From Eledone cirrhosa (lineage: Eukaryota): a stretch of 64,000 bases of DNA. Each line of letters starts with the position of its first letter. Position 1 is the stretch's first letter. Below the pieces are notes generated by a model. That model was not told the DNA's origin. It did no database searches and saw only the letters and a program-made list of their open reading frames with translations. Below, piece after piece: positions 501-1,197 of this stretch. The position numbers and the translations under genes are program-made. The DNA lies in assembly GCA_964016885.1 (NCBI GenBank), contig OZ024752.1:41106001-41170000 (forward strand), given 5' to 3'.

Positions 501-536
501 CTTTACCGGTTTCGCAGTTCTTCTGCTTTTCAAAAG
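501..536 (-). ncRNA. Minimal type-I hammerhead-like motif, U3-A8 core variant
   Basis: Minus strand reads CTT TTGAAAA GCAG aagaa CTGC GAAA CCGG TA AAG; inverted partner of 617-652. Confidence 0.6.
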
Positions 537-616
537 TAGAGTTGAGATGGAGGGTCTGTGGTTTTTCTCACATCTCTCTCTCTATATATATATATATATA
601 TTTATTAATTTATTTA

Positions 617-652
617 CTTTTGAAAAGCAGAAAAACTGCGAAACCGGTAAAG
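617..652 (+). ncRNA. Minimal type-I hammerhead-like motif, U3-A8 core variant
   Basis: CTT TTGAAAA GCAG aaaaa CTGC GAAA CCGG TA AAG: stem I CTT/AAG, stem II GCAG/CTGC, palindromic stem III ACCGGT. Confidence 0.6.
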
Positions 653-887
653 GAACCAAATATATATATATATTGTTTTATAAATAAGACTTTTCGATTT
701 CATCTTTTTTTCTTTATACTTTCACTCGTGTAGGACACCTCGGTTATTTTTCATTCTGTAAAAAAAAACCTCACTTTCTAATATATATATATATATATAT
801 ATTATGGACACTACCGTATATTTTGGTAGATTTATCTACATATATATATATATATATTTATTAATTTATATATATAATTTATATATA

Positions 888-1197
888 TATATTAGTAAAA
901 AGGAAAAGAAAATGCTGACAAATTTTTTCCAGTGAAGTATAGTTTAATTAGAAATAAGTATAAATTAGTAATAAGTATTGGTTAATATTCAGTTTTAGTT
1001 TTAAGTTTTTACCGGTTGCGCATTTCTAATGCTTTTCAAAAAAATTAAAACTAAAACTGAATACTAACCAATACTTATTACTAATTTATACTTATTCCTA
1101 ATTAAACTATTTTTCACTGGGAAAAATTTGTCAGCATTTTCTTTTCCTTTTTACTAATATATCACAACTCGTGTGTCACACCTCTATTTTTTTAAAT
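888..1197. mobile_element. Inverted-repeat insertion in (TA)n with one-sided tail (Penelope-like terminal module)
   Basis: 888-1004 and 1045-1161 are imperfect inverted copies; ~35-bp extra tail to 1197; spacer carries a hammerhead-like motif (1006-1043, minus, TTGAAAA...GCAA CCGG TA); related copy at 18177-18314. Confidence 0.6.

Follow-up and report, generated by a model that had tools for sequence, protein, structure and literature searches.

Hammerhead motifs in the window

The window, i.e. the whole stretch of 64,000 bases of Eledone cirrhosa DNA that was analysed, comes from contig C12 in an assembly of 3.0 Gb and consists of AT-rich animal DNA with abundant simple repeats. A descriptor scan revealed four minimal type-I hammerheads with U3-A8, one of which also carries C at position 13 (GCAA), and C13 is present as well in a 5'-truncated partial copy within the window (base 18181). 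The original prediction of hammerheads with a swapped 3-8 pair proved correct, U3 and A8 being found in all four copies; their places had been given rightly, with coordinates that take in 3-4 further bases of stem I. The motifs, with a canonical hammerhead of a distant family (family D) for comparison, are:

504..533, minus strand: minimal type-I hammerhead with U3-A8 and A13 (descriptor scan); predicted cut between 504 and 503
620..649, plus strand: minimal type-I hammerhead with U3-A8 and A13 (descriptor scan)
1010..1039, minus strand: minimal type-I hammerhead with U3-A8 and C13 (base 1018) (descriptor scan)
8821..8848, minus strand: canonical C3-G8 minimal hammerhead of family D, 88.9% to L170
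61892..61929, minus strand: minimal type-I hammerhead with U3-A8, U7, a long loop II, A13 and only two stem I pairs (descriptor scan)

All four U3-A8 motifs contain the hammerhead core (U4, G5, A6, N7, A9, G12, A14, A15.1-U16.1 and H17), Watson-Crick pairing of position 3 with position 8, a UA cut site with A17, a G10.1-C11.1 pair closing a stem II of 4-5 pairs, and a self-complementary stem III with a four-base palindrome between A15.1 and U16.1. A two-strand fold of the motifs of families A, B and C (see below) yields a six-base intermolecular helix from this palindromic stem III. Stem I has four pairs in family A, three A-U pairs in family B, two pairs in the main subfamily of family C and five in another family C subfamily; in the copy at 1006, part of the 5' side of stem I is contributed by the fold-back arm. 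The stems at 501/617 and at 1006, which had been described as otherwise different, are related, as the 30-base motifs differ at only four positions. A at position 13 is present in families A and C but absent in family B, where C13 is fixed; families A and C thus belong with the minimal hammerheads of Penelope-like elements (PLEs), whereas family B, lacking the A13 feature, is a variant motif and no member of the hammerhead consensus. Two loose descriptor matches without stem I (18969-19015 and 50057-50110, both minus strand) are probably chance or decayed. Among the Rfam matches listed for the window (150 of 323, and 32 of 32 in a second list), no hammerhead family was found at the motifs; those listed were only microRNA-like and fell on simple repeats and hairpins.

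The window motifs are parts of 5'-truncated end repeats of three related Neptune-like PLE families, A, B and C:

452..575, minus strand: 5'-truncated pLTR (end repeat) of family A that forms the left arm of an inverted pair; 92.7% to the full element L199
617..787, plus strand: family A end repeat, right arm, reaching the long tail end and (TA)n; 88.4% to L199
887..1046, minus strand: end repeat of family B, subfamily B1, and one of the two arms of a fold-back of 124 bases (inverted repeat I1); 94.4% to L060
1039..1203, plus strand: family B1 end repeat, second arm, beginning approximately at the cut site, with tail and without hammerhead; 95.8% to L060
18176..18319, plus strand: end of the youngest family B subfamily (B2), truncated in stem II, with G12 and C13 (base 18181) retained; 95.3% to L204 over 18168-18357, 83% to B1
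61673..62017, minus strand: family C end repeat, older and more diverged; 78.8% to L079

A genome-wide pattern search returned 17,680 matches against 0 for the reversed pattern. The descriptor gave 194 distinct matches in 221 sequences, which are loci picked for containing hammerheads, against 1 in the same sequences reversed. Family A comprises about 13,000 copies (77 of 100 among the matches listed of the 17,680), family B about 10,000 (at least 4,197 matches for B1 plus 6,085 for B2) and family C hundreds (roughly half of 100 among the matches listed, of 1,092 in total); exact-pattern searches undercount copies. Although single U3-G8 and C3-A8 decay products exist, the chance that the motifs are accidental or decayed C3-G8 copies is practically negligible in view of the 17,680 plus 6,085 near-identical matches against 0 in the controls, and of the intact elements that carry U3-A8.

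Penelope-like elements carrying the motifs

Full elements have the order hammerhead, ORF1, ORF2, about 1.1 kb and hammerhead, and a tandem repeat-ORF-repeat layout was found at four loci (L060, L198, L199 and L202). ORF2 (775 amino acids in family A, 784 in family B) matches RVT_1 (PF00078) and GIY-YIG (PF01541), the RVT_1 score of family A (28.7) lying slightly below the Pfam cut-off (29.6), and both families have a C-x4-C-x2-C linker ahead of GIY-YIG. According to the text of Craig et al. (2021, PMC8557442), a CX2-5CxxC linker before GIY-YIG marks Neptune and Nematis; the presence of the cysteine linker, shared with Nematis and Naiad, points to a Neptune-like assignment of families A and B. 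Upstream of the family C end repeat is a related endonuclease frame (50-59% to B; L171), which is represented by fragments only. The proteins of families A and B are 56% identical to each other, and intact ORF2 frames average 99.2% identity in family B (nine frames) and 99.6% in family A (eight frames). These families also form inverted copies with (TA)n flanks, and their two 3' ends are separated by about 37 bases; PLE insertions are typically inverted pairs with a tail of 30-40 bases and (TA)n targets (PMC8557442).

ORF1 of families A and B (about 400 amino acids) starts with its own ATG about 170 bases after the motif. At L199:2353-5816 and L203:1128-4486, ORF1, which has no Pfam match, and ORF2 overlap, with ORF2 in the -1 frame; the front of ORF2 lacks a start codon of its own, and a U-rich slippery heptamer is kept in phase in both families. 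This heptamer was kept despite a protein likeness of only 56%, and the junction is likely to be a programmed -1 frameshift. A search for a fold downstream that might stimulate the putative frameshift in families A and B yielded no clear one.

A non-LTR retrozyme nature was rejected, because the window contains inverted pieces of coding elements instead of the non-coding tandem monomers, each with a canonical hammerhead, that define retrozymes. A tandem array was seen at L064:2224-9623, with units of about 920 bases, each containing a family A end piece with a whole hammerhead, nine of which were seen; though its layout is retrozyme-like, it probably represents an insertion amplified together with a host repeat. 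Further palindromes occur in the window: short palindromic fragments at 4243-4379 and 16761-16897 match the coding part of family D at about 72%, and a perfect or near-perfect palindrome at 41941-42482 contains an identical 144-amino-acid frame on both strands, which by eye resembles the C-terminus of a PLE endonuclease and has no match to family B. An uninterrupted frame of 627 codons at 57550-59433 (plus strand) may encode a vesicular acetylcholine or amine transporter, judging from its appearance.

The U3-A8 pair

The U3-A8 swap is already known for PLE hammerheads and adds nothing new: it is described for PLE hammerheads of S. mansoni (about 1,300 matches; Cervera & de la Pena 2014, PMC4209133), with two examples in the published alignment, and Perreault et al. 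(2011, PMC3088659) report natural U3-A8 covariation in several examples and cite earlier activity in vitro. In view of these publications, a reading of the swap as unusual is not supported.

It had further been proposed that functional maintenance would show in a scarcity of mismatched 3/8 combinations within families. Such a count comes out as proposed through shared ancestry: in about 17,000 copies of A and B1, position 3 is changed in 98, position 8 in 83 and the free position 7 in 83, so that changes within families are neutral decay, and counts of 3/8 states inside a family were dismissed as evidence for selection. A comparison across families does favour the pair. Among 100 matches listed, 83 are C3-G8, 13 U3-A8, 3 U3-G8 and 1 C3-A8, and the majority state is paired in every family seen; the C3-A8 rows among the 194 descriptor matches come from loci fetched for that very change.

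Families A, B and C, which had been regarded as independent witnesses to the coupled change, are related to each other (50-59% protein identity, a common palindrome and cut site). A genome search for C3-G8 motifs with their palindrome and cut site (pattern without the extra base after A9) gave 0 matches. Given the kinship of the three families and the empty result of this search, a single inherited swap is the most economical explanation, and A, B and C probably acquired U3-A8 from a common ancestor, judged from pairwise identity rather than from a tree.

The alternative, namely that each family exchanged C3-G8 for U3-A8 on its own in several compensatory events, might draw on a separate U3-A8 family (F) whose stem II differs and whose palindrome is longer, on a C3-G8 family of four copies with the same stem II ends as family C, and on the S. 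mansoni families which carry the swap (PMC4209133). We consider it distinctly unlikely, because of the traits common to A, B and C, the empty genome search, and the behaviour of the C3-G8 families D and E, in which U3 occurs in 4 of 100 A8 copies among the matches listed (236 in total). These double changes are at chance level, given 3 U3-G8 per 100 among the matches listed across families, and a compensated U3-A8 subfamily within D and E was not found. A tie between U3-A8 and the loss of the extra base after A9 was also dismissed, because C3-G8 families without the extra base occur, and the S. mansoni U3-A8 examples in the published alignment keep it (PMC4209133).

Family F (L155-L166) has a six-base palindrome and accounts for 12 of 100 among the matches listed. 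In its 12 loci no linked RT-EN was found, the one PLE frame being in an unfit orientation; the family is possibly non-autonomous and possibly a second origin of the swap. In five inverted pairs (C7:64038878, C17:32853221, C22:8519587, C4:262303140 and C4:344428697), the same rare core change was seen in both arms, which points to a common template for both arms or to gene conversion between them.

C13 in family B

In subfamily B1, C13 is present in 4,108 of 4,197 copies (the other 89 being 27 A, 13 G and 49 U), and in the youngest subfamily B2 in 98 of 100 among the matches listed (6,085 in total). GCAA is thus a trait of the family, as the original prediction held, and the partial copy at 18177-18200, which it had cited in support, indeed has C at base 18181 and is a B2 fragment. 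Fifteen family B loci were fetched for their long frames; 13 of them show a hammerhead, and every B motif in them is C13, including those of elements with intact frames. As C13 is fixed and the intact frames are 99.2% alike, family B must have spread recently with C13. C13 is the less usual part of the finding: one new core variant in a known system.

No other family with C13 was found among the 194 descriptor matches, and none in two lists of 100 matches, save one family C copy. An ancestral GAAA subfamily of B was considered and rejected, as six aligned A13 copies scatter over the subfamilies in the way that back-changes would. A coding reason for C13 was likewise rejected, because the frame that starts at an ATG in stem II ends after four codons and ORF1 begins with an ATG of its own. 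A full-text literature search, which covers subscription papers and figures thinly, found no natural A13C or other A13 variant; per-mutant values for A13C are absent from the published supplement searched, and a 2026 preprint on retrozymes as PLE derivatives does not, in the passages considered, cover either the U3-A8 or the C13 variant. Changes of A13 are said to cost 10-100-fold (PMC4075628, citing Nelson & Uhlenbeck), which is milder than changes at most core positions.

A family B element at L210 (L210:4373 and the L210 minus strand) has an intact ORF2 and lacks the hammerhead in both end repeats through the same deletion. The identity of the deletion at both ends implies at least one insertion from a template without the motif.

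Conservation of the motif and indications of cutting

Families A and B share 26 of 30 motif bases, and at four-fold codon sites they are saturated, with 43 of 133 identical (32%), which implies that the fold was kept through a long separation. The differences include compensatory changes (G-C to U-A in stem II, C-G to U-A in stem I); the upstream flank is 77% identical over 75 bases (motif included), and the downstream flank is not conserved. These figures bear out the claim that the motif has been under selection; maintained function, as had been suggested, is plausible for family A.

Within family B, subfamilies differ at about 10-14% of four-fold sites, and the rest of the core, G10.1-C11.1 and the palindrome are retained throughout, in a sample that was chosen by the motif. 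The family B contigs show 0 substitutions at 10% or more in the 30-base motif versus 11 in the 260-base repeat; about 1.3 would be expected, so the difference is not significant, and the unbiased contigs behind it stem from two runs of one study. Stem I of family B has only three A-U pairs, and the predicted lowest-energy fold differs from the hammerhead (stem I probability 0.01), but the canonical family D is also predicted to misfold (0.06), and folding does not separate B from D. When a type III hammerhead was scanned pairwise, the 3-8 pair was rescued by G3-C8 only, and U3-A8 was low (PMC9901934).

The 5' ends of family A copies form a step at the cut site, with no sharp pile-up or peak. 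Five start positions around the site gave 299 matches; by eye, 85 of 100 among the matches listed were real junctions (16, 10, 25, 19 and 15 at positions 16.1, 17, 1.1, 1.2 and 1.3, respectively, the positions being blurred by TA microhomology). Five positions downstream gave 253 matches, and seven upstream gave 241, of which 16 of 42 among the matches listed looked real. The corresponding search in family B was swamped by point mutants and duplications. Of 30 family A junction loci, none starts at the cut site and runs into ORF1, and the one with ORF1 has the whole motif. About 300 starts around the site compared with some 13,000 whole motifs that were read through indicate that uncut RNA is the usual template of family A. 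This matches the Anolis PLE, whose hammerhead needs the element's protein to cut and whose hammerhead mutants still insert in vitro (PMC11167929).

Interpretation

With a probability of about 0.72, we interpret the motifs as parts of the end repeats of three related Neptune-like PLE families, which carry minimal U3-A8 hammerheads inherited once and cutting slowly as dimers; family B would have fixed C13, likely cut more slowly still, and spread nevertheless. A tandem repeat-ORF-repeat transcript would carry a motif at each end, and the two motifs could pair via their palindromic stem III and be cut slowly after A17, perhaps with the help of the element's own protein; dimer formation, cutting and the purpose of cutting are here deduced from sequence. 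Each insertion may be independent of cutting, as the site is read through in nearly all copies. Truncated, often inverted pieces that decay later would result when the transcript is copied from its 3' end into (TA)n, and selection might act on a few master elements rather than on the copies.

As to the hammerhead of family B, we would put a slowed but still cutting ribozyme just short of an even chance. A serious contender, though one we would not wager on, is that C13 and the weak all-A-U stem I ended cutting altogether, and that the family continued to spread because PLEs do not need the ribozyme. The weak stem I and the competing predicted fold would fit an effectively dead hammerhead, as would the insertion of Anolis hammerhead mutants in vitro (PMC11167929), the reported spread of Naiad PLEs without canonical hammerheads (PMC8557442), and the five inverted pairs insofar as 3-8 is broken in both arms, as if mismatched templates had been inserted (gene conversion being the alternative). 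The persistence of the other core bases, G10.1-C11.1 and the palindrome across B subfamilies speaks against it, and so, weakly, does the motif free of common substitutions.

It is conceivable, though doubtful, that the hammerhead of the recently active family B works with U3-A8 and C13 together, possibly through a swapped 13-17 pair or aid from the element's own protein. The narrower proposal, a functional swap of the non-canonical A13-C17 pair for C13-A17 with activity near normal, we hold to be unlikely. A13 pairs with C17 in the hammerhead structure (PMC7092961), B has A17, and C13 became fixed in a young and successful lineage. However, A, C and F combine A17 with A13, so A17 does not require C13, and a second C13 family was not found among the matches noted above.

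Even less probable is a non-cutting role of the motif, e.g., in protein binding, as a splice donor in the palindrome or in transcript structure. Most copies read through the site, which would suit such a role, and branch-point-like and acceptor-like stretches lie downstream in family B, but positions 3 and 8 are paired in the majority state of each family, as catalysis requires. The splice donor was rejected, as the putative splice would not bring the ATG of stem II into frame with ORF1, and ORF1 has a start of its own.

PLE hammerheads are conserved, yet they cut slowly in vitro, and the sole reconstituted system can insert without them. Eledone offers two young sister families with intact frames in one genome, which differ at core position 13 (A versus C), so that with the A13 family A as a control the need of PLEs for the ribozyme becomes directly testable. 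Cutting by B would broaden the natural core consensus and mean that searches based on GAAA undercount ribozymes; should B work with U3-A8 and C13, the genome would contain 10,000 copies of a natural hammerhead that lacks GAAA and escapes standard descriptors. If B does not cut, a dead ribozyme did not keep an autonomous PLE from multiplying to about 10,000 copies. For specialists, either outcome would be useful.

Comparison with known systems

The closest likeness is to the minimal hammerheads of S. mansoni PLEs (PMC4209133), which are also of type I with a short stem I and a palindromic stem III, lie in PLE end repeats, occur as solo copies and as opposite-strand pairs (100-700 bases apart in S. 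mansoni), and include U3-A8; one listed example is identical to families A and B in core bases 3-9. The Eledone motifs differ in the absence of the extra base between 9 and 10.1, in their four-base palindrome, in a far higher copy number and, in family B, in C13, where the column in the published alignment reads GAAA (one AGAAA). The core variants of Perreault et al. (PMC3088659) share the U3-A8 covariation; those described in the text comprise A6C, insertions after 6 and 13, U15.1-A16.1 and U4C, with no substitution of A13 among them.

With the Neptune-type PLEs of Craig et al. (PMC8557442), the Eledone elements share an RT, a zinc-finger-like linker and GIY-YIG, inverted truncated copies, a tail of 30-40 bases, (TA)n targets and a hammerhead near the 3' end, but they have a separate ORF1 of about 400 amino acids that overlaps ORF2 in the -1 frame; the legend of Fig. 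1 in that paper allows for a frameshifted ORF1, in a clade that is not evident from its text. The Anolis PAc element (PMC11167929) resembles them in the hammerhead at the junction of repeat and ORF and in the two 3' ends that form the tail. PAc, however, belongs to the Poseidon clade, has C3-G8 and an ORF starting in stem II, whereas the Eledone ORF1 begins about 170 bases past the motif.
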